Virus record (IMG/VR): IMGVR_UViG_3300045922_000127
Location: 1-37,995 of that record
Origin: a virus
Length of the DNA: 37,995 nucleotides
Reading direction: 5' to 3' (one strand)
Part shown: positions 1-37,995 of the stretch, piece by piece
Position numbering within the stretch: the stretch's first letter is position 1
How the letters are laid out: each line of letters starts with the position of its first letter
The notes under the pieces: model-generated
What the model was told of the DNA's origin: nothing
Databases searched by the model: none
Seen by the model: only the letters and a program-made list of their open reading frames with translations
Translations under genes and position numbers: made by a program

Positions 1-127
1 CCCCACCTACCACAGCATCCGATGGGTCGGGGATCGAACCATCGGCACGCTATGCGGTGCGTGGATCGAGCGCCGGATCATGGGCTGGTCGCATCTTCGC
101 CGTGACCACGCTGACCTGTTCGCCCGA
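1..127. repeat. Terminal direct repeat, copy 1 (identical to 37869-37995)
   Basis: Base-by-base reading: 1-127 equals 37869-37995. The match ends only because the window ends. Confidence 0.95.
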
Positions 128-166
128 CCGTGCCGCCGATGCTTCCCGAAAGGAGTGGGCCCATGA
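2..166 (+). CDS. 3' portion of the junction-spanning small ORF (same gene as 37819-37995 after circularisation)
   Basis: The frame of ATG 37819 runs through the repeat into position 2 and stops at TGA 164-166. The full product is 71 aa (MSDEPEWVFILSRRRNRPTYHSIRW...PCRRCFPKGVGP) with a C-terminal CxxC. Its stop overlaps the next start (ATGA at 163-166). Confidence 0.55.
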   Translation, partial: PTYHSIRWVGDRTIGTLCGAWIERRIMGWSHLRRDHADLFARPCRRCFPKGVGP

Positions 167-588
167 CCACCACCAGCAACTTGGAGTGGCCGCCGCCGAG
201 CGAGGTTCCGTCTCCGCTGCCTATCGCGTTGCATTTCCGCTGGTCCGAACTTCAACCGTCAAAGTTTCTCGCAGTCGACGTGACCTCCCTCGACTTCGTG
301 AGATACGCAACCTCTGTGCTCGGCCCGTCGGTTGTGTGCTTGACACAGTTCGTCGCCGCCGACCTTGTTCGCACGCATCGCCGTTCGTATCCCACATGGC
401 TTCTTGCCGAGTCGCTCGGAATGGGCTGCCCTGACGGTGAGCACAGGAAGCTGCGTCTCGTGTTGGTGCGGGCGTGCAAGTTCGGGCCGTTCGAGTTTGC
501 CGGCAACGAGTTCGTGTTGCGATCCCATTGGGTGTCGGACTGGTCTTGGTCTGAGCTGCTGCTCAACGGGGGGACCGATGAACGCTGA
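163..588 (+). CDS. hypothetical protein (141 aa)
   Basis: ATG 163 is preceded by GAAAGGAG at 148-155 and forms an ATGA overlap with the upstream ORF. It lies in the frame of track ORF 130..588. No recognisable motif. Confidence 0.65.
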   Translation: MTTTSNLEWPPPSEVPSPLPIALHFRWSELQPSKFLAVDVTSLDFVRYATSVLGPSVVCLTQFVAADLVRTHRRSYPTWLLAESLGMGCPDGEHRKLRLVLVRACKFGPFEFAGNEFVLRSHWVSDWSWSELLLNGGTDER

Positions 589-1342
589 GGAACTAGCCAA
601 CATTCTTGCCGCCCATGACCGGTGGCTCAGATCGAACGGCAAGGAAGGCGTCAGAGCCAACTTGGTTGGAGCCGACTTGGTTGGAGCCGACTTGGCCGGA
701 GCCATCTTGTACGAAGCCGCCCTGTTTGAAGCCGACTTGGCCGGAGCCATCTTGTTTGAAGCCAGCCTGGCCAGAGCCAACCTGTTCGCTGTCAACCTGG
801 TCGGAGCCAAACTGGTCGGAGCCAAACTGGTCGGAGCCAACCTGGCCGGAGCCAACATGGCCAAAGCCAACCTGGCCGAAGCCAACCTGGCCGGAGCCGA
901 CATGGCCGGAGCCATCCTGACCGGAGCGACCCCGACCGGAGCCATTCTGATCGCTGCCAACATGATCGGAGCCAAACTGGCCGAAGCCAACTTGGCTGGA
1001 GCCGACATGGCCGGAGCCAACCTGGCCGGAGCCGACATGGCCGGAGCCAGCCTGCTCGGAGCCAACCTGGCCGGAGCCAACTTGGTCGGTGCTGTTGGGA
1101 TCAAGTGGGGTGCCATTGGCCCTGTCGGCCAGGGCAGGCGGATGCTCACCGCGTGGGCGCATGACTCGCTGGACGAGCCGATGATCGGCGGCGGCTGCTT
1201 CATGGGCACGTTCGGTGAGTTCCGCGAGATGATCGCCGGTGTGCCGTGGGGATGGGGCAAGGGATCACCCGAGGATCAAGATCGTTGGCGGCAGGAGTGC
1301 GCCGATGCGGCTGATTGGTTGTGGCTGGCGGTGACCAAGTGA
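578..1342 (+). CDS. pentapeptide-repeat protein (254 aa) with a non-repeat C-terminal domain
   Basis: An internal ATG of track ORF 365..1342 gives MNAEELANILAAHDRWLRSNGKEG. This is followed by 29 uninterrupted A(D/N)LxG-type pentapeptides and an 84-aa C-terminal domain. It overlaps the previous gene by 11 nt. Confidence 0.85.
   Translation: MNAEELANILAAHDRWLRSNGKEGVRANLVGADLVGADLAGAILYEAALFEADLAGAILFEASLARANLFAVNLVGAKLVGAKLVGANLAGANMAKANLAEANLAGADMAGAILTGATPTGAILIAANMIGAKLAEANLAGADMAGANLAGADMAGASLLGANLAGANLVGAVGIKWGAIGPVGQGRRMLTAWAHDSLDEPMIGGGCFMGTFGEFREMIAGVPWGWGKGSPEDQDRWRQECADAADWLWLAVTK
656..1090 (+). repeat. 15-bp-period coding tandem repeat (29 pentapeptide units)
   Basis: ANLVG ADLVG ADLAG AILYE ... 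ANLAG ANLVG, counted from the translation. The repeat keeps several other frames open on both strands. Confidence 0.9.
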
Positions 1343-3001: not shown

Positions 3002-3687
3002 TCAGGGTTGTGTCGGTGACGGTGAGGATGCGCCGCTGCGGGCCGTGTCAACGCCGAGCGCCTGACCGTACCGCCACGCCATCTTCGCGTTCACTTTCCG
3101 CCCGGTTCGGGCGGTGATCTCGGCGGCGACCTGCCGCCACGATCCACCGTGGGCGCGGGTGACGGTGAGGATGCGCGCCGCCTCGGCACCGAGCGGCGAG
3201 GTTTCCGGGGTGGCGTCGGGGCCGATGTGCTGCCACCAGGCGAGCCGGCCGCCGGTGTAGCGTCCGTCGCGTCGCGCTCGCTGTTTCCCGGCGACGGTGC
3301 GGGCCCGGATCATCGCCCGCTCGTACTCTGCGATAGCGCCCATGATCTGGCGTACAAGCTTGCGGCTGGCGTCGTGCGGGTCGAGGACCATGGCGTTTTC
3401 GGCGGCGTCAAGGATGGTGACGGTGGCGCCGCGCTGCCACAGCTGGGCAAGAATCCATTCTTGCAGCATGAGGTCTCTGGCGAGGCGGTCTAGTTTGCAC
3501 ACTGCCACGGTGTCGCCGGCGGTGACGGCGGCGAGGAGCGCGGCGAGGGCGGGGCGGGTGTCGATGCCTTCGGCTCCGGAGATGCCGTCGTCGGTGTGAA
3601 GGGTGATCCTCTGGCCGTTGTCTGGGTTTCGATGGTGCCGCGTTCCTGCTGGCCGATGCTTGATACGCGGGCGTAGCCGTGCAACAT
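3002..3687 (-). pseudogene. small serine recombinase (resolvase/invertase type), reading frame broken near 3607-3625
   Basis: ATG 3687 (AAGGAA 7 nt upstream) gives MLHGYARVSSIGQQERGTIETQ, which carries the catalytic Ser motif. That frame runs into Pro/Ser-rich nonsense. The -1 frame reads ITLHTDDGISGAEGIDTRPALAALLAAVTAGDTVAVCKLDRLARD...AIAEYERAMIRARTVAGK plus a C-terminal HTH (track ORF 3002..3508). Confidence 0.75.
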
Positions 3688-3710
3688 GGTCGGGTTTCCT
3701 TGTGGAATGT

Positions 3711-3755
3711 GAACGGCCCGCATCGTTGCCGTGGTGGCGTCGATGCGGGCCGTTC
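3711..3755 (-). terminator. perfect 15-bp stem hairpin between the 80-aa gene and the recombinase
   Basis: GAACGGCCCGCATCG (3711-3725) pairs with CGATGCGGGCCGTTC (3741-3755) around a 15-nt loop. There is no clear U-tract. Confidence 0.5.
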
Positions 3756-3766
3756 GGTGGACGGTC

Positions 3767-4009
3767 TTAGGCGGTGGATCGTGGCGGGTGGTGGTCGTCG
3801 AGAATGAACCGTGCCATCTGGTCGACCATCTCCAGCTCGCTTGCTCGCATGTCAATCTCGGTGCAGCCGATGGCTCGCAACCCGACACGGGTCAGGTCGT
3901 CGGGGGTGTGCGGGTCGTACGGCCATGCTCGCAGGTGGCCGCGGATGGCGGCGGCGATGGCGTCGAGGTCCGCGCCGGTGAGCCTTGACGTGTCCAGGTG
4001 TCGGGTCAT
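3767..4009 (-). CDS. hypothetical protein (80 aa)
   Basis: Track ORF 3767..4018. ATG 4009 makes an ATGA overlap with the upstream stop (alternative ATG 4018). No motif recognised. Confidence 0.6.
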   Translation of the reverse strand: MTRHLDTSRLTGADLDAIAAAIRGHLRAWPYDPHTPDDLTRVGLRAIGCTEIDMRASELEMVDQMARFILDDHHPPRSTA

Positions 4010-4350
4010 TCGGCCCATGCGTAACGCTCCACGAGCATATCGGCGGCGTCATCCGACAGTGGGCGGCGAACCTCGACACCGCCCCAGTATCCGACGATCT
4101 CCGCGTCACGGCCGGTCGCCTGCCATCCGTAGCCCTCGTGGACCACCGGAACCCTCGCTTCGATATGCGGGCCGCCGGTCGTGAACACGACTTCGAGCGT
4201 GTAGGTGATCTCGACGCTCAGCGGGTCGTGCTCGTCGTCGTGCTCGTGCTCGTCGTCGTAGGTGTCGGTGTAGCTGGTGATCTTGTCGAGCATGTCGAGA
4301 ATCGACGTGATGTGCGCCGTCAGCTCGTCCCTGGTCTCGTTGGTGTCCAT
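4006..4350 (-). CDS. small acidic protein, paralogue 1 (114 aa)
   Basis: MDTNETRDELTAH...DDEHEHDDEHDPLSVEITYTLEVVFTTGGPHIEARVPVVHEGYGWQATG is closely similar to the 5209..5520 product. GGGAAAGGA lies 8 nt upstream of ATG 4350. Confidence 0.75.
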   Translation of the reverse strand: MDTNETRDELTAHITSILDMLDKITSYTDTYDDEHEHDDEHDPLSVEITYTLEVVFTTGGPHIEARVPVVHEGYGWQATGRDAEIVGYWGGVEVRRPLSDDAADMLVERYAWAE

Positions 4351-4468
4351 CGTGTGCATCCTTTCCCTTTGGTGAACCGGCCCCGGTTGGGGCCGGTGGT
4401 GCCCCGCCTCGGTCGTGAACCGTCGCCCACCTGGCAGCGGGTGGCGGGGCGGACACTCTAGCCGAGTG

Positions 4469-5164
4469 TCACGGCAGCCTGATTGGCATGACGAGCGCCA
4501 GCAGATCGCAACCGGTGTCGACGCCGTGGGCGGTGAACAAGGTCGGTTTGCGGTTGTCGACGAGGCGGGCGAGCTTCACCCAGTCCGCCCCGATCGCTTT
4601 CGCTGCGGCGCAGATATCCGCCAGATAGGCGGGGTTCCACGCGACCGGCTCGGATTCTTCGAGCGGGAACCCGTCCCGATCCGGTGGGAACAGCTGCTCC
4701 CATTGCGGGTAGTCGCCTTCGAGCAGCCGCACCTGGGCGGTGGACGCCCCATCGGGGGTGATCGTGTCGATTCGCACCGACCGTCCGCCGGTCTCCAGCA
4801 CGAACCGGACCGCCGGTTCGGTGTCACCGCGCCGCACCCTGGGCGTGCCCTTCACGATCCGGACGAGATCGCCGGCGGGGATGTTCACCGGGGCGAACGG
4901 TTCACCGATGGCGACGCGTTCGGTGGTGATGGTGACGACGTGCAGCCGGTAGCTGTCGCACGCGACCAGCCGCACCCCATCGGCGCAGGTGTCGACCAGG
5001 ACACCGGTCAGCAGTGGCCGCGCCTGATCGGTGGACGCCGCCAGCGTGACCGCGTTCACCGCGGCGCGCAGTGTCGACGCGTCGACGGTGAACAGCACCC
5101 GTTCATCGTCGACGACGGCGGGGGTGACCGCCGCCGGTAGATGGTGAATCATGCTCGGATTCAT
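4469..5164 (-). CDS. truncated DnaN (DNA polymerase III beta sliding clamp)-like protein (231 aa)
   Basis: ARPLLTGVLVDTCADGVRLVACDSYRL, LLEGDYPQWEQLFP and C-terminal LALVMPIRLP match conserved DnaN blocks. GGAAGGGAAGGGA lies upstream of ATG 5164. The longer track ORF start (5320) is Arg-rich and overlaps the neighbouring gene. Confidence 0.65.
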   Translation of the reverse strand: MNPSMIHHLPAAVTPAVVDDERVLFTVDASTLRAAVNAVTLAASTDQARPLLTGVLVDTCADGVRLVACDSYRLHVVTITTERVAIGEPFAPVNIPAGDLVRIVKGTPRVRRGDTEPAVRFVLETGGRSVRIDTITPDGASTAQVRLLEGDYPQWEQLFPPDRDGFPLEESEPVAWNPAYLADICAAAKAIGADWVKLARLVDNRKPTLFTAHGVDTGCDLLALVMPIRLP

Positions 5165-5208
5165 GGTATCCCTTCCCTTCCTGTTGGTGTTTCTCGCGGT
5201 CACTCCGC

Positions 5209-5520
5209 TTACGCGTATTCCTCGACGAGCATGGCGGCAACATCCTGGGCCAGCGAGCCCGTCACTTTTTCGCTGCCCCACCAGCCGACGATCTCCGCGC
5301 CGTAGCCGGTTGCCTGCCATCCGTAAGCCTCGTGGACCATCGGGATACGTGCCTCGAGGTGAGGGCCGCCCGTGGCGAACACGACCTCAAGCGTGTAGGT
5401 GATCTCGACGCTCAACGGGACGCACTCGTCGTCGTAGTGGTCGCCGCTGAGTTTCCGCTCGAGCATGTCGCGGATCGACTCAACGTGCGCCGTGAGCTGG
5501 TCCCTGGTCTCGTTGTCCAT
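5209..5520 (-). CDS. small acidic protein, paralogue 2 (103 aa)
   Basis: MDNETRDQLTAH...DDECVPLSVEITYTLEVVFATGGPHLEARIPMVHEAYGWQATG. GGAAGGGAAGGA lies 7 nt upstream of the ATG. Confidence 0.8.
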   Translation of the reverse strand: MDNETRDQLTAHVESIRDMLERKLSGDHYDDECVPLSVEITYTLEVVFATGGPHLEARIPMVHEAYGWQATGYGAEIVGWWGSEKVTGSLAQDVAAMLVEEYA

Positions 5521-5646
5521 CGTTGCATCCTTCCCTTCCTGTTTCGCTGCTCGACACCGGTTGGTGCCGATGGTCCCCTAGCCACGCCGTGAACGTTCGC
5601 AGCCCGTGCGCTGCGCTAGGGGTGGGCCGGCTCAGCGGCCCGATGT

Positions 5647-5883
5647 TCACGCCACGCCATCACCCCCACCGGGCCGCTGGAGCTGCTCGGCTGCGTCTTC
5701 CACGTCCACCCGCCGCCAAACCCACGTCCCGCCAACTTTGCGGAGCGGCGGCGGCAGGATGGCAGCCAGGTTCGGATGCAACCGAGGCTTGGTGAGCGCA
5801 ACCCTGATCGACGACATCGCCACCCCGAGATGGGCGGCGACCTCGGCGGTGTCCATGAGGTCGCCGGGTTCGATCCGGTTCAT
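5647..5883 (-). CDS. Xis/MerR-like helix-turn-helix DNA-binding protein (78 aa)
   Basis: LMDTAEVAAHLGVAMSSIRVAL ... GGTWVWRRVDVE is typical of excisionase-type HTH proteins. ATGA overlap with the upstream gene. Confidence 0.6.
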   Translation of the reverse strand: MNRIEPGDLMDTAEVAAHLGVAMSSIRVALTKPRLHPNLAAILPPPLRKVGGTWVWRRVDVEDAAEQLQRPGGGDGVA

Positions 5884-6155
5884 GCCAGCACCCCCGCGAG
5901 TGCGTTCATTGCCTCAACCGCACGCTTGATCGTCGGACTGTAACGGTATGCGCCGTCGGTGAAATGATCGTATGGCGACACCCGATCCTCGGCAAACAGG
6001 TACGCGTCGGTCGCGGCGTCAATGTCGCCGGCTTCGATCAGATCGACCACCTTGTAGATGTTGTCGACGTCTCGCGCATCCCAGCGGTCGGCTTGCGCCC
6101 ACTGTGCGGCGGCGCACAAGGCGCGCACCACCTCGTCGGGGTCGATGCGGTTCAT
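5880..6155 (-). CDS. hypothetical protein (91 aa)
   Basis: Track ORF with ATGA overlaps at both ends. No motif recognised. Confidence 0.65.
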   Translation of the reverse strand: MNRIDPDEVVRALCAAAQWAQADRWDARDVDNIYKVVDLIEAGDIDAATDAYLFAEDRVSPYDHFTDGAYRYSPTIKRAVEAMNALAGVLA

Positions 6156-6490
6156 CGCTGCACCCCCGCCACGAGCTCATTCGCCAGCTGCACCGCCTGA
6201 TTCTTCGGCTGCGGCCCTTCGAGCAGGTCATACAGGTGGTCGACCAGACGGCAGGTGGTCATCACCACGTCGTAGCTGTCGTGCAGGTTGTGGGCGGCGA
6301 TCTCCGATTGCGCCAGATAGTCGGGGCACTGCACAAACACGATGCGGCTAGCCGGATGGTGGTAGGCGCGTGCGATGAGGTCGCGGAGGTAGCGGCGGTG
6401 ACCGTAGGTGTCACCTACCACGGCGATGCTGGTGCCGACGGCGGCGACGCCAGTGGCGGCGTTGCCGGTGCCGTGACTGCTGGTCGTCAT
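6152..6490 (-). CDS. hypothetical protein (112 aa), first gene of the leftward operon
   Basis: Track ORF. GGAAGGGAAGGGAAAC lies upstream of ATG 6490. Confidence 0.7.
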   Translation of the reverse strand: MTTSSHGTGNAATGVAAVGTSIAVVGDTYGHRRYLRDLIARAYHHPASRIVFVQCPDYLAQSEIAAHNLHDSYDVVMTTCRLVDHLYDLLEGPQPKNQAVQLANELVAGVQR

Positions 6491-6537
6491 AGTTTCCCTT
6501 CCCTTCCGTGGCCCACCCGTTGCGGGCCGCTGCCCCG

Positions 6538-6566
6538 ATGGTAACGCTAACGCTGACCCCTGTCAA
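6538..6566 (-). promoter_or_regulatory. leftward promoter candidate (TTGACA-N17-TACCAT)
   Basis: On the minus strand, TTGACA is at 6566-6561 and TACCAT at 6543-6538 with a 17-nt spacer, about 45 nt upstream of ATG 6490. Confidence 0.55.
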
Positions 6567-6637
6567 GCCATACGCGACACCGCCCGCCACCCGAACTAGT
6601 CGAGCAGCGGGCGGTGTGCAGTCAGTCAGTCAATCAT

Positions 6638-6718
6638 CTAGCTCACGCACGTAGCGAGCCGCCAATCAGCCCACTCGCCGAGCAGCTCCAGCACCTCGAT
6701 CTTCTTCGCCATCGTCAT
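6638..6718 (-). CDS. possible 26-aa leader micro-ORF
   Basis: GAGGAAGGA (6730-6722), then ATG 6718, giving MTMAKKIEVLELLGEWADWRLATCVS. It lies between two tandem promoters. Very short. Confidence 0.2.
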   Translation of the reverse strand: MTMAKKIEVLELLGEWADWRLATCVS

Positions 6719-6765
6719 GCATCCTTCCTCATCGAGAGCCTGCACCATACAAGCCACCACACCCG

Positions 6766-6795
6766 ATCATAGCGCCGGCGCTAGCCAAGCGTCAA
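6766..6795 (-). promoter_or_regulatory. leftward promoter candidate (TTGACG-N18-TATGAT) overlapped by a 14-bp palindrome
   Basis: On the minus strand, TTGACG is at 6795-6790 and TATGAT at 6771-6766. The palindrome TAGCGCCGGCGCTA (6770-6783) covers the -10 edge and the spacer. Confidence 0.55.
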
Positions 6796-6858
6796 GCACA
6801 ACCCCGAGCACCACGACGACGACCTCGACGACCTCGCCGAGCCGCGTCGAGGTGAGCC

Positions 6859-6959
6859 GTGCCGGCACACGGCACGACGTACCGCCACAAGGCACACCGC
6901 CGCCTGCCGTGCCACCACACGGCACACTGTGCCGCACCACGGCACACGGCACACGGCAC
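6859..6959. repeat. cluster of ten GGCAC/GTGCC pentamers including three tandem CACGGCA heptamers
   Basis: GGCAC starts at 6864, 6871, 6891, 6921, 6941, 6948 and 6955. GTGCC starts at 6859, 6909 and 6929. Palindromes GTGCCGGCAC (6859-6868) and GGCACACTGTGCC (6921-6933). Heptamer run at 6938-6958. Confidence 0.85.
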
Positions 6960-6970
6960 AGGCTGGAGTG

Positions 6971-7120
6971 CTGCTAACTACTGCTAGCAGACTGCTAACT
7001 CCAGTTAGCAGAGTGCGAACTCCAGCAAGCAGGCTGCTAACTACTGTTAGCACACTGCGAACTACCGCTAGCAGACTGCTAACTACAGCAAGCACCCGTC
7101 CTGCTAACTAAAGTTAGCAC
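6971..7120. repeat. seven tandem 20-bp imperfect palindromes, consensus CTGCTAACT-NN-AGTTAGCAG
   Basis: Units start at 6971, 6992 (perfect arms), 7013, 7034, 7055 and 7076 with an exact 21-bp period, then at 7101. Confidence 0.9.
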
Positions 7121-7418
7121 CCCTCGACGTGTCCAATGTCAAGACACCAGACACGCGCCGGCGCGTACAGGCTTGCCGCGAGTGCCACCACCACCACAAC
7201 ACGCCTGCTCAGCACACCTACGCCACCACCCGGGGCCATGCATCGACCTCGACGGGTCGAGGTAGGGCACTCCCGCCAGCCGCACACGAGCGCACGCAAC
7301 CGGGCAAGTGCCGAGGCACCCGGCGGCGTGTGTGTTGTGTCTCCTTCTCTGCTGTGTTCACTTTTCGTGGTGGGGTGTGTTGTGGGTGGTTTCGTGTTGG
7401 TGGGTTGGTGGTGGGGAT

Positions 7419-7466
7419 GGGGGCGCCGCCCGCTGTTGCGGGCGGAGGCGGCGCCCCCTTCGTTCT
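7419..7466 (+). terminator. strong GC hairpin followed by a T-rich tail
   Basis: GGGGGCGCCGCC (7419-7430) pairs with GGCGGCGCCCCC (7447-7458), with an inner CGC/GCG stem, followed by TTCGTTCT. Confidence 0.45.
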
Positions 7467-7528
7467 GGGGCGTTGGTTGCCTGGTTACGTGCCCCCCCTT
7501 CGGTTGCCGCACCCGAAGTCCCGACCGT

Positions 7529-7550
7529 TGTGGATATCTGTGTGGATATC
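7529..7550. repeat. direct repeat TGTGGATATC x2 (12-bp spacing)
   Basis: Copies at 7529-7538 and 7541-7550. Each contains the GATATC palindrome. Confidence 0.8.
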
Positions 7551-7856
7551 CGAGCACGGTTCACGCTCGTTCCCACCGTGCAGGTGGGGTGTTGTGTGTT
7601 GGTCGTCCCACGGCTTACACGCTGCTGGTGTTGCAGCTCGCGCCCGAGTGTCCTGACGCCTTCGGCGCTTCCGCGTGGGACCGGTCCCCGTTTCCGGCCA
7701 CTTTCCCCTCCGCTGGCTGACCAGGCTGATGTGCGGGTTCGGGGCTTGCTCCCTCACCTCCTGTCGTCCCGACGGTGGTGGGGCTGGGTTGTTGCGAGGG
7801 GATGATGGCATGGGGTGGGGGGCGGTGTCAAGCATCAGCGACGCTGGTTGGGTACG

Positions 7857-9800
7857 ATGCTTGTTGTGCCGCGGCGACGGATCGACCCTTCAGATGTGGC
7901 CCGCTACTGGGAGCTGCGAGCGATCGGGTGGAATATTCAGAACGCAGCCCGCGACGTTGGGATACACGTCAACACGGCGTCGAAGTGGGAGAAGAAAGCC
8001 CGCGACGCCCGCGAAGCGACGAAAGCGCACACGAGGGAGATCGCGGCGGCGCTCGAAGGTGGGATGCAACGCTCCACGGCGCGGCGGGAGGCGTTCAGCG
8101 ACGAGCTGAACGGACCCATCCCCCTCTCGGCGCTGTGCGCCGAGGCAAGGAAAGGGTTGGAGGACTTCGAATACTTCCGCAGGGTGTACCTGGGTCGGGT
8201 GCCGTCACCGTGGCAGGTCGAAGCCGCGTACAAGATCAAAGCGCTGCTGGAATCCGACGACAAAGAACGCGTCGTGCTGAACGTCGCCCCCGGCGTCGGG
8301 AAATCCACCCTGTGGCACGACATTGCGGTGTGGATGATCTGCCGCGACCGCTCCATCCGCATCCTCATCGGCTCCATCTCCGGTGTGCTAGCGAAACAGT
8401 ATTCGGATCGGATACGCAACACCCTCGAGCGCACAGAGCCGATCATGCCCTCCGACTACGAGATCGCGAAAGGGCTCGCCGTCCCCGCCACCCGCTGCCT
8501 CGCAGTTGATTACGGCAGGTTCCGCCCCATCTCGGCTGGCAGCTTGTGGCGCAAAGAGGAGTTCATCGTCGAACAGCACGGACAGCAGGCGATCAACAAC
8601 AAAGAACCCACCGTCTCCGCGTACGGGATGGACGCCGAGTTCATCGGCCACCGCGCCAACCTGTGCCTGTTCGACGACGTAGCCAACACTGAGAACGCGA
8701 AAGAATCCGCCGCCCGCGACCGCCTCATCGAAAAATGGGACGCGGTCGCAGAAGCCCGCGTCGAAGCCGGCGGCCTCCTCGCCGTCATCGGGCAACGCCT
8801 AGGACCAAACGACCTGTACGCCCACTGCTTGGCGAAGAAAACATGGGACCCCGACGACCCCGACGTCGAGCAGGAAACCCCCATGTACCATCACCTGGTT
8901 TACAAGGCGTACTACGAAGAGCTCGACACCGGCATCGAATCGAAACGCCCCAACGCCCCCGCCTGGCCGAACGGCCCCCTGCTCGACCCGAAACGCCTCC
9001 CGTGGAAAGACCTCGTGCAAATCCGCCAGGCGAACCGCCAAAAATTCGAGGTTGTCTACCAGCAGAACGCCAACACCGACACCAACGCGTTGATCTTGCG
9101 TGTGTGGGCCACCGGCGGGATGGGACCGGACGGGGTGCTGTACCCCGGGTGCATCGACGACGACCGCCAACCAGGGCACCCGCCACCAGACCTGAAACCG
9201 CCGGTGCTGTCCATCGGCACCATCGACCCGTCCCCCACCGAATACTGGGCTGTCGAATGGTGGCTGCACCAACCAGAAACCGGCCTGCGATGGCTGGTTG
9301 ACATGGAACGCCGCCGCATGACCGCCGAGGAAGTGTTGGGCTACGACACGATCACCGGCACCCACTTCGGGATCATGGAAGACTGGCAGAACCGCTCCGC
9401 CGCCCAACACTATCCGATCACCCACTGGGTGGTGGAAACGAACGCGGCGCAACGATTCCTCCTCGCCCACGACTTCGTGCGCCGCTGGCAAGCGAAACAC
9501 CGAGTCAACATCATCCCCCACCAGACACACGCCAACAAATGGGACGAACGGTTCGGCATCGAAGCGTTGCTCCCCCCGCTGTGGCGGTCAGGTGCGGTGC
9601 GAATCCCCACACTCCGATCCAACTGGAAAACGTTGGCGTTCATCGACGAGATGGTGTCATGGAAACCTGACAAGAAACGCGGCACCGACATGGTTATGGC
9701 ACACTGGTTCGCGGAGCTTCACTGGCCGAACGTCCAACAGATCAAACCCCCACCCCGCCAGTGGAGACCCACGTTCATGCAACCCGCGAGGAGCGCCTGA
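7857..9800 (+). CDS. terL: terminase large subunit with an N-terminal HTH domain
   Basis: N-terminal WNIQNAARDVGIHVNTASKWEKK (HTH), Walker A NVAPGVGKST and Walker B-like LCLFDD. It is the first gene of the late block. Alternative GTG start at 7815. Confidence 0.85.
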   Translation: MLVVPRRRIDPSDVARYWELRAIGWNIQNAARDVGIHVNTASKWEKKARDAREATKAHTREIAAALEGGMQRSTARREAFSDELNGPIPLSALCAEARKGLEDFEYFRRVYLGRVPSPWQVEAAYKIKALLESDDKERVVLNVAPGVGKSTLWHDIAVWMICRDRSIRILIGSISGVLAKQYSDRIRNTLERTEPIMPSDYEIAKGLAVPATRCLAVDYGRFRPISAGSLWRKEEFIVEQHGQQAINNKEPTVSAYGMDAEFIGHRANLCLFDDVANTENAKESAARDRLIEKWDAVAEARVEAGGLLAVIGQRLGPNDLYAHCLAKKTWDPDDPDVEQETPMYHHLVYKAYYEELDTGIESKRPNAPAWPNGPLLDPKRLPWKDLVQIRQANRQKFEVVYQQNANTDTNALILRVWATGGMGPDGVLYPGCIDDDRQPGHPPPDLKPPVLSIGTIDPSPTEYWAVEWWLHQPETGLRWLVDMERRRMTAEEVLGYDTITGTHFGIMEDWQNRSAAQHYPITHWVVETNAAQRFLLAHDFVRRWQAKHRVNIIPHQTHANKWDERFGIEALLPPLWRSGAVRIPTLRSNWKTLAFIDEMVSWKPDKKRGTDMVMAHWFAELHWPNVQQIKPPPRQWRPTFMQPARSA

Positions 9801-33368: not shown

Positions 33369-33377
33369 CAGTAGAGT
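33348..33377 (+). promoter_or_regulatory. early promoter candidate (TTGACG-N18-TAGAGT)
   Basis: The hexamers overlap the 3' end of the GT gene. ATG 33385 lies 7 nt after the -10, implying a leaderless mRNA. Confidence 0.55.
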
Positions 33378-33384
33378 GCCTGTC

Positions 33385-33606
33385 ATGGAGTTGGGTGAAG
33401 CGCAGACGGCGCTAGCGGCACGCATCAGCCACCTGCGACGGCAAGCCGGATGGACCAACGAAGAACTCGCCGACCGCTCCGGGTTGTCGCCACGCACCAT
33501 CACCGCGCTGCAAACCCCCTACGCGAACCCCACGTTCATCACGCTGCTGGTGCTCGCAGACACGTTCGGTGTCACCCTGTCCGACCTGTTAGGAGACAAC
33601 CTGTGA
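33385..33606 (+). CDS. XRE/Cro-CI family HTH regulator (73 aa)
   Basis: LRRQAGWTNEELADRSGLSPRTITALQT ... LLVLADTFGVTLSDLL. It is the first gene of the early block. Alternative GTG start at 33376, inside the -10. Confidence 0.75.
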   Translation: MELGEAQTALAARISHLRRQAGWTNEELADRSGLSPRTITALQTPYANPTFITLLVLADTFGVTLSDLLGDNL

Positions 33607-37822: not shown

Positions 37823-37995
37823 GCGACGAGCCCGAGTGGGTGTTCATCCTCAGCCGCAGGCGAAACCGCCCCACCTACCACAGCATCCGATGGGTCGGGG
37901 ATCGAACCATCGGCACGCTATGCGGTGCGTGGATCGAGCGCCGGATCATGGGCTGGTCGCATCTTCGCCGTGACCACGCTGACCTGTTCGCCCGA
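37819..37995 (+). CDS. 5' portion of the junction-spanning small ORF (continues at 128-166 after circularisation)
   Basis: ATG 37819 overlaps the upstream stop (ATGA). The frame is open to the window end and continues into the repeat. Confidence 0.55.
   Translation, partial: MSDEPEWVFILSRRRNRPTYHSIRWVGDRTIGTLCGAWIERRIMGWSHLRRDHADLFAR
37869..37995. repeat. Terminal direct repeat, copy 2 (identical to 1-127)
   Basis: See copy 1. Confidence 0.95.

Follow-up and report, generated by a model that had tools for sequence, protein, structure and literature searches.

A probable tandem array of host MLDSR operators upstream of the leftward early operon of an uncultured actinophage

The viral record IMGVR_UViG_3300045922_000127, which was analysed over its whole length of 37,995 nucleotides and is referred to here as the window, carries an array of seven palindromic 20-bp units at positions 6971-7120. 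We consider it probable that this array is a tandemly amplified, predicted operator for the host regulator MLDSR, placed upstream of the leftward early operon of the phage, where it would act in cis, perhaps also as a decoy. In Rhodococcus jostii RHA1, MLDSR, a regulator of the XRE family, recognises 43 bp of DNA ahead of the operon to which its own gene belongs (Zhang et al. 2017, Nat Commun 8:15979; PMC5504291). It autoregulates mldsr-mlds and is sequestered on lipid droplets by MLDS (PMC5504291). Judged by sequence, the phage units are the same element as that found in the promoter region of the MLDSR-family regulator's own gene in Streptomyces and Acidimicrobiia, they have the architecture of the biochemically defined MLDSR site, and they are conserved under constraint across many phages with unrelated early genes. 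Because the palindromes read as tandem copies of the MLDSR operator, the phage appears to recruit, or to soak up, a host transcription factor.

The array is confirmed as real and non-random. Six 20-mers start at 6971, 6992, 7013, 7034, 7055 and 7076, each followed by one base to give a 21-bp period, and the seventh starts at 7101 after five additional bases (CCGTC), a step of 25 bp. Tandem Repeats Finder reports the segment 6971-7094 with period 21, 5.9 copies and 77% matches, and the pattern CTGCTAACTNNAGTTAGCAG with at most three mismatches matches six of the seven units and nothing else in the 37,995 bp, against 0.00 expected from 100 shuffles; the 7013 unit has four mismatches. The seven phased palindromes described in an initial annotation of this DNA thus stand on the sequence itself, on the repeat finder and on the pattern scan, and perfectly complementary 9-bp arms are indeed restricted to the 6992 unit. 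The elements of the array are as follows.

6971-7120, plus strand: whole array, 7 units with 14 phased hexamers
6971-6990, plus strand: unit 1, CTGCTAACTACTGCTAGCAG, core GCTAACTACTGCTAGC, 33.4 bits
6992-7011, plus strand: unit 2, CTGCTAACTCCAGTTAGCAG, perfect 9-2-9 palindrome, 31.4 bits
7013-7032, plus strand: unit 3, GTGCGAACTCCAGCAAGCAG, the most degenerate, 24.6 bits
7034-7053, plus strand: unit 4, CTGCTAACTACTGTTAGCAC, 32.6 bits
7055-7074, plus strand: unit 5, CTGCGAACTACCGCTAGCAG, 30.1 bits
7076-7095, plus strand: unit 6, CTGCTAACTACAGCAAGCAC, the type retained as a single copy in contig L003 and many other relatives
7101-7120, plus strand: unit 7, CTGCTAACTAAAGTTAGCAC, at the 25-bp offset; an identical 25-bp step is found in contig L158
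6983-7083, plus strand: five junction palindromes of the form GYWAGCA-N3-TGCKAAC, with 6-5-6 spacing

The bit scores come from a position weight matrix (PWM) built from 18 units, taken from eight phage loci (the window, L158, L003, L228, L230, L229, L231 and L232) and from the non-phage metagenome contig L224. Across these 18 units, positions 3, 4, 6-9, 13 and 16-19 are invariant while the spacers vary, a pattern of two hexamers set 10 bp apart that departs from a strict 9-2-9 palindrome. In the window, each unit has GCTAAC followed by GCAAGC, GTTAGC or GCTAGC, and the next unit begins 11 bp on, so that 14 hexamers follow one another at about 10.5-bp phasing. This spacing, with a hexamer every 10 or 11 bp, agrees with the one-face helical arrangement proposed in the initial annotation, and the units do look like sites for a dimeric helix-turn-helix (HTH) protein, as had been suggested there. 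The junctions between units are palindromic as well (GCTAGCAGACTGCTAAC at 6983, 7004, 7025, 7046 and 7067; five against 0.36 expected), so that 6-4-6 sites, which lie within units, take turns with 6-5-6 sites, which span the junctions. The half-site CTGCTAACT with at most one mismatch occurs ten times in the window against 1.85 expected, and eight of the ten matches lie inside the array.

The link to a host regulator came from two scans with 1.5-unit patterns, each with few chance matches expected, which both landed directly upstream of homologous XRE-family genes, in L224 and in the Streptomyces locus L236. For the test of this link, the matrix was built from phage units only (25 units from 16 loci), and seven XRE loci were fetched that included neither L224 nor L236 (three from Streptomyces and four from Acidimicrobiia, about five distinct sequences). 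L237, L238 and L239 have the same sequence, L241 and L243 share their upstream region, as do L245 and L246, and L240 and L244 complete the set, with L238, L239 and L242 left without separate scoring. The phage-only PWM finds the unit at 21-29 bits between -42 and -22 from the XRE start codon in all seven loci, and in L237 17 of 17 bases are identical to the phage unit GCTAACTATTGCAAGCA. The only other match of at least 10 bits is the same site on the opposite strand in the Acidimicrobiia loci, and the adjacent inverted unit of the same operator in the Streptomyces loci. Random matches of this PWM number 0 per Mb at 20 bits or more, with 0.5 per Mb per strand expected at 18 bits or more.

Homologues of the XRE protein in Streptomyces and Acidimicrobiia number at least about 8,000 per search, on contigs that reach 11 Mb and with housekeeping neighbours; by this genomic context, the regulator gene is a chromosomal core gene in Actinomycetota. 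The gene downstream of it encodes 168-219 residues with weak apolipoprotein, DUF883 or YtxH-like signals, and this order of an XRE gene and an apolipoprotein-like gene is the MLDSR/MLDS arrangement of R. jostii (PMC5504291). A tblastn search with either XRE protein found no homologue in the window, and one with the Streptomyces protein found none in any of about 230 phage loci. The initial annotation had sought the binding partner among the HTH proteins encoded by the phage; the unit instead matches the operator of a chromosomal MLDSR-family regulator of which the window holds no homologue. A unit was also observed just upstream of an acyl-CoA dehydrogenase gene in the Acidimicrobiia metagenome-assembled genome L234 (about 3944-3970, reverse-complement coordinates), and a perfect-palindrome unit just after tatD in Nocardioides antri (L235, 5355-5385); these may be further members of the host regulon. 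A literature search for the unit motif as a string retrieved unrelated primers only.

The comparison can be taken further with the R. jostii site itself. The MLDSR-bound DNA TCCGCTAGCTGGGTGCTAACAGAGTGCTTGCAATTGCTAGCAC, defined by electrophoretic mobility shift assay (EMSA) and surface plasmon resonance (SPR), consists of motif 2 (23 bp) followed by motif 1 (20 bp), with a dissociation constant of 175 nM for motif 1 and 62 nM for the 43-bp site (PMC5504291). When the phage-only PWM was run over the 120-bp R. jostii region, it singled out motif 1 exactly, at 20.0 and 17.4 bits, with no other match above 5. The window units are identical to motif 1 (GTGCTTGCAATTGCTAGCAC) at 11-15 of 20 bases. For the junctions (GCTAGCAGACTGCTAAC and variants), which keep the 6-5-6 spacing, the agreement with the core of motif 2, GCTAGCTGGGTGCTAAC, is 11-14 of 17 bases. 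All seven units have the motif 1 architecture, with two GYWWRC-type hexamers separated by 4 bp and flanked by (G/C)TGC and GCA(C/G), and they also have the adjacent 5-bp-spacer site that makes up a composite of about 43 bp, since the array alternates both site types. With units that resemble motif 1 and junctions that resemble motif 2, the array reads as alternating motif-1-like and motif-2-like sites, equivalent to some 3.5 consecutive host operators. The published 16-bp box GNT(T/A)GCTNNTGCTANC is matched by the unit 1 core GCTAACTACTGCTAGC with one mismatch and by units 4 and 6 with two, and a 7-3-7 variant of the box gives five matches with at most one mismatch against 0.36 expected.

By its terminase, the window belongs to a large family of uncultured phages with genomes of about 38-40 kb. 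The initial annotation had proposed that the motif be sought in related genomes; many related uncultured actinophages have one or two copies, in the early control region as in the window. L158 runs collinear with the window, at a nucleotide identity of roughly 75-91% (about 84% in the longest block); its contig breaks off after four units at 21-bp intervals and the 25-bp step also seen in the window, which makes at least five units. L003, with a terminase 96% identical, has one unit at the position of the window's seven and shares with the window a 700-bp non-coding stretch downstream. In phages outside its training set (L024, L060, L062, L064, L068, L070, L074, L085, L126 and L077), the 18-unit PWM locates the unit once or twice ahead of the terminase gene; among these phages, L077 carries an inverted pair of units that forms a 42-bp palindrome. 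L228 and L230 have two units adjoining three DnaA boxes (about 45-50 bp away) and whiB, and in L230 no tblastx-detectable relative of the window terminase is found in the 8.4 kb to the right. L231 and L232 have unit and terminase in common with the window and none of its early proteins within 5.8 kb. Copy number among the phages is therefore 1, 2, at least 5 or 7. A tblastn search with all early proteins of the window against the unit-bearing loci revealed no shared DNA-binding protein beyond the close relative L158. The sequence of the unit is kept under constraint, and since the phages that retain it have unrelated early genes, the likely binder is a factor that all of them encounter in the host.

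The unit is also found in cultured phages. A blastn search with the intergenic region gave no match in GenBank phages, and with the array alone only a 31-nucleotide match in cluster V mycobacteriophages. Mycobacterium phage Wildcat, a cultured member of that cluster, has one unit between genes 171 and 172, GTGCTAACAACAGCAAGCACC preceded by GCGCTAACACA (L247 1347-1378; record 76919-76950), and MaryV, Cosmo and Azrael100 carry the Wildcat unit as well. The mycobacterial counterpart of MLDSR is, we presume, probably Rv0474/MSMEG_0918. A search of genome contigs with the terminase protein returned no prophage relative.

The genome is actinophage-like, about 37.9 kb with 64% G+C. Its first 127 nucleotides (1-127) are identical to the last 127 (37869-37995), which marks the window as a circularised assembly; the genome has ~37,868 bp, and its start point is arbitrary. 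The nearest match in GenBank phages is to the terminase, at only 23-24% identity. Nearly all genes lie on the plus strand, including those for the terminase (7857-9800), portal, capsid, a collagen-like fibre, an XRE protein (33376-33606), a YqaJ exonuclease, RecT, a pentapeptide-repeat protein and WhiB; the exception is the leftward block at 3002-6490. Between the end of this block at 6490 and the terminase gene start at 7857 is a 1.3-kb gap, the sole large non-coding region, and the array lies in it 740-890 bp upstream of the terminase gene. The gap holds no credible open reading frames (ORFs), in line with the earlier placement of the array in non-coding DNA between the leftward operon and the terminase gene. 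The features on the leftward side are listed here.

3002-6490, minus strand: leftward early block, with a split serine recombinase, a DnaN-like clamp, a 78-residue HTH_17 protein and small ORFs of no recognised kind
6766-6795, minus strand: sigma-70-like promoter TTGACG-18-TATGAT, reading leftward, 175 bp from the array; a consensus match, function predicted
6856-6960, no strand assigned: second repeat block between promoter and array, made of CACGGCAC/GTGCCG words

Control of the leftward block presumably comes from the side of the array. In the window, L158, L003, L231, L232 and L229, the units lie 40-180 bp upstream of a leftward -35/-10 match, and their orientation relative to the leftward genes is that of the host operator relative to mldsr. 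The second repeat block holds the perfect palindromes GTGCCGGCAC (6859-6868) and CGGCACACTGTGCCG (6920-6934), and is missing from L158 and L003. A perfect CRP/GlxR-type palindrome, TGTGACATTCGTCACA, was noted between a leftward TTGACA promoter and the unit in L231 (about 905-920), with equivalents in L232 and L229. We predict that during infection host MLDSR dimers or oligomers sit on the phased sites along one face of the DNA. Bound MLDSR would set the activity of the leftward early promoter, and possibly also rightward transcription toward the terminase gene, such that early phage expression is coupled to the level of free MLDSR in the host, i.e., to its lipid-droplet or stress state. Amplification from one or two sites to seven would be expected to raise occupancy and cooperativity and to sharpen the response, and an array on replicating phage DNA could titrate the regulator off the host operon.

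Several points weigh against this interpretation. The presence of an MLDSR orthologue in the host is inferred from the breadth of the regulator in Actinomycetota, binding of MLDSR to the phage array is a prediction, and the promoter assignments are consensus matches only. The 16-bp box with at most two mismatches gives five matches against 1.47 expected, a count that was reached in 1 of 100 shuffles and does not clearly exceed chance, and the box derives from the site of one species. Most relatives have zero to two units and the closest has one, which implies that the seven-fold array is dispensable for the basic life cycle; its added value, through cooperativity or titration, is speculative. 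A combined analysis of 85 relatives by Tandem Repeats Finder and 8-mer clustering likewise showed that most are without tandem arrays, which are therefore not a family trait. Two unrelated AT-rich viral contigs, L190 (9130-9400) and L212 (68-195), have arrays of GTTAGC-N4-GCTAAC palindromes; there are about nine in L190, with variable spacers, and about six in L212, with a 22-bp period and starting 68 bp from a contig end that begins GTCCCCCC. Since the hosts of these phages may lack MLDSR, phage-encoded proteins of similar specificity may exist. Finally, the DnaA-box clusters described below lie in the same intergenic region of relatives, which makes an origin-linked role inseparable from a transcriptional one.

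An action in trans or as a tether, beyond that of a promoter-proximal operator, is unlikely but would use the same host protein. As a sponge, seven units (14 half-sites) on hundreds of replicating copies would deplete host MLDSR and thereby reprogram the mlds operon, the product of which coats lipid droplets and protects DNA under stress. As a tether, the array would anchor phage DNA at lipid droplets, where MLDS holds MLDSR, and would amount to a centromere-like or compartment-targeting element with no need for a phage-encoded partner.

Readings that call on a phage protein or on replication can be weighed against the MLDSR operator array. It is rather unlikely that the units serve as a repressor or activator array for an HTH protein of the phage, with the likeness to the MLDSR operator a case of mimicry or convergence. 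The candidate binders are these.

33376-33606: 76-residue XRE protein
5647-5883: 78-residue HTH_17 protein
2525-2920: winged-helix protein

L158 has, besides the array, counterparts of the window's HTH_17 protein (90% identical) and winged-helix protein (81%), the Cro-like XRE protein heads the rightward early operon, and similar palindrome arrays are those of L190 and L212. However, the three candidates have no detectable homologue in the fetched DNA of L231 and L232 (5.8 kb of early genes) or L230, where the unit is retained, and the recognition helix of the phage XRE protein (SPRTITALQ) differs from that of MLDSR (SNPYLSQIE). Recognition by the terminase, with the units as a cosB- or pac-like platform on which the N-terminal HTH of the large subunit would oligomerise and start packaging, is decidedly unlikely. 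The position of the array, ahead of the terminase gene in the sole large non-coding region, would suit this role; a TerS gene was found in neither the window nor the family, and all family terminases have a conserved N-terminal HTH of about 110 residues (window 7857-8200; GRRxIxxxDxAxFW...AGIHYNTAxKW). Among about 75 distinct terminase N-termini, the unit is found only with the recognition helix NT[AG]S.W, which is present in 11 of 11 motif-bearing sequences and also in about 10 without the motif; of roughly 55 sequences with other helices, including L004 (NTALKW), none has the unit. The pairing of unit and terminase in L231 and L232 fits this reading as well. Yet the correlation with the helix is confounded by shared ancestry, and the unit follows the terminase DNA-binding domain only loosely. 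L003, with an N-terminus 93% identical and the same helix core (NTASNW against NTASKW), has one unit and not seven; in L015, L051 and L057, which have the NTAS helix, 4 kb of upstream sequence holds no unit; and the two units of L230, beside whiB and DnaA boxes, lack a window-type terminase as noted above. The unit also occurs in Wildcat, and there is no reason why DNA used for packaging should coincide with the operator of a regulator on host chromosomes. The terminase would more naturally recognise the 19-mer GGTCCCCGTTTCCGGCCAC (7683-7701), which is far better conserved, lies nearer to the terminase gene and is found in at least 65 IMG/VR contigs of the family.

That the array is the iteron part of a phage origin, bound by a phage initiator or by host factors beside DnaA boxes, is very unlikely. 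L004 and L005 (terminase 76% identical) have, in place of units, six DnaA-box matches with at most one mismatch within 90 bp at the equivalent position (L004 6747-6834), and the two units of L228 and L230 adjoin DnaA boxes. Clusters of such boxes also lie upstream of the terminase gene in L017 (3232-3333), L018 and L021, and occur in the family contigs L135 and L137. The window and L003 share two ATATCCACA boxes 12 bp apart (window 7529-7549), and in L017 the distance is also 12 bp, between TTATCCACA and ATATCCACA. The clusters suggest that the region holds a host-DnaA-dependent origin or a DnaA-regulated promoter. In L002, an initiator-type gene of HTH_36/DnaD_N-like character (ORF about 115-886, minus strand) lies directly upstream of the terminase gene, and its linker contains three 22-bp repeats (TCCGCATCTGTGCGGCTACCCCC, 519-586) in a layout like that of lambda O and ori. 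The phage has a clamp homologue and no polymerase, primase or helicase match, and tandem phased repeats of variable copy number are iteron-like. The window, however, has no initiator gene (no Rep, O, DnaD or HTH_36 match, and no homologue of the L002 protein), the closest relative has a single unit, and the DnaA-like pair of the window, with one mismatch in each box, is 410 bp away, with no AT-rich unwinding element adjoining the array. Identity with a transcription-factor operator explains the sequence of the unit with no role in replication. A plasmid-prophage centromere of the parC/parS kind, with a dedicated partition ATPase or GTPase, is highly improbable. Tandem, helically phased dimer sites do resemble type II and III centromeres, such as R1 parC, pSK41 parC and tubC, but no ParA, ParM, TubZ, ParB or ParR-like gene was found among ~40 ORFs scanned (Pfam or PHROGs), nor a Rep-like one, which bears out the initial observation that ParA/ParB-like genes are missing; the array had no match among 72,556 plasmids, and the closest relative has a single unit. 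The centromere, iteron and small-terminase-site readings are weaker than that of a host-regulator operator array. Likenesses to LexA, CIRCE, IdeR, KorB and SopB sites were dropped since spacing or half-sites do not fit. An RNA gene was also rejected, since scans of 6300-8000 for Rfam families (E up to 1) and tRNAs produced nothing on the palindromes beyond microRNA-like noise below threshold.

Other parts of the region may have functions of their own. The non-coding block at 7640-7760, which is conserved nearly base for base in the window, L003, L004 and L005, is a candidate packaging site or late-operon leader. It includes the 19-mer, which lies 180-470 bp upstream of the terminase gene in the relatives checked, and the palindrome GGGACCGGTCCC (7677-7688); contig L034 starts exactly at CGGTCCCC. 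The idea that the 19-mer marks physical genome ends is not supported, as only 1 of 65 contigs ends there; the ends of L158 and L001 fall within repeat arrays, where assemblies can be expected to break. The CTAAC pentamer was weakly enriched with respect to the 19-mer anchor, an effect that came from three loci. Streptomyces phage Manuel (L086/L087), a distant relative by its terminase (gene 1, 23% identical), has a 276-bp direct terminal repeat (1-276 and 44902-45177), 660 bp of non-coding DNA before the terminase gene that is rich in ACATGT-type repeats, and no unit; this comparison is suggestive with respect to packaging style and does not bear on the array. Strand composition switches sharply in the window from C-rich (CCACCACCAC...) at 6740-7300 to G/T-rich (GTGGGGTGTGTTGTGGGTGG...) at 7330-7420, and GTGGGG tracts like those of the G/T-rich stretch also occur in L001, L002, L003, L231 and L232. 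A remnant ORF of 26 codons (6638-6718, minus strand) has a full-length counterpart of 102 residues in L003, and is followed by an 18-nucleotide inverted repeat, ACACCGCCCGCCACCCGA / TCGAGCAGCGGGCGGTGT (6577-6617), that may be a terminator at a mosaic joint. The serine recombinase, of the resolvase/invertase type with a C-terminal HTH, is split into overlapping ORFs at 3490-3888 and 3002-3508 on the minus strand, by a frameshift, as a pseudogene or through an assembly error, and no second integrase was seen in the window. At the far left, a 15-bp tandem repeat with 29 copies (654-1089) lies in an ORF (365-1342) for a pentapeptide-repeat protein (Pfam PF00805, E = 2e-34).

MLDSR, its operator and the borrowing of host regulators by phages are known already; MLDSR boxes in phages, and a seven-fold amplification of such an operator, appear to be new, within the limits of our literature check. 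We know of no described phage with a seven-fold array of a host operator, nor of a link between phages and MLDSR, from a search that was not exhaustive. Should MLDSR of the host occupy these sites, a whole family of uncultured actinophages, together with one or more cultured mycobacteriophages, would sense a regulator whose free level is set by lipid droplets, and this would constitute a new input to early gene control in phages of Actinomycetota, separate from LexA and the SOS response. The phages, with 1, 2, at least 5 or 7 units, would provide a ready experiment on what amplification achieves, whether a sharper switch, titration or tethering. The motif of the MLDSR regulon would be extended from one Rhodococcus operon to Streptomyces and Acidimicrobiia, and the PWM could be used for regulon mapping.

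As for the R. jostii MLDSR operator, the phage array is built from the hexamers GCTAGC, GCTAAC and GCTTGC/GCAAGC, with the 6-4-6 spacing of motif 1, the 6-5-6 spacing of motif 2 and the flanks (G/C)TGC...GCA(C/G). The host operator differs in that one motif 2 and one motif 1 (43 bp) lie directly before the regulator gene, whereas the phage array has seven head-to-tail units over 150 bp, lies 175 bp from the nearest promoter match in a phage with neither the regulator nor mlds, and is bound by MLDSR only by prediction. In the lambda ori iterons and the type II centromeres, sites are bound cooperatively along one face of the DNA. The array shares with these systems (lambda ori; R1 and pSK41 parC) the tandem arrangement of dyad-symmetric or phased sites at about two helical turns. 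Unlike them, it has no cognate O/Rep or ParR/ParM gene in the window, and the sequence of its unit is explained by a transcription-factor operator. Titration loci are known from the E. coli datA locus, which titrates DnaA, and from plasmid iterons that titrate Rep. In such decoys, clustered high-affinity sites can lower the amount of free protein, more so on multicopy DNA; titration by the phage array is one possible consequence of amplification. Sites for host factors are well known in phages, with LexA boxes in CTXphi, coliphage 186 and GIL01, and DnaA, IHF and CRP sites in control regions. The closest parallel is with these, in that a phage control region carries operators of a chromosomal regulator, by which host physiology would gate expression; the precedents have one or a few such sites, whereas the array described here has seven.

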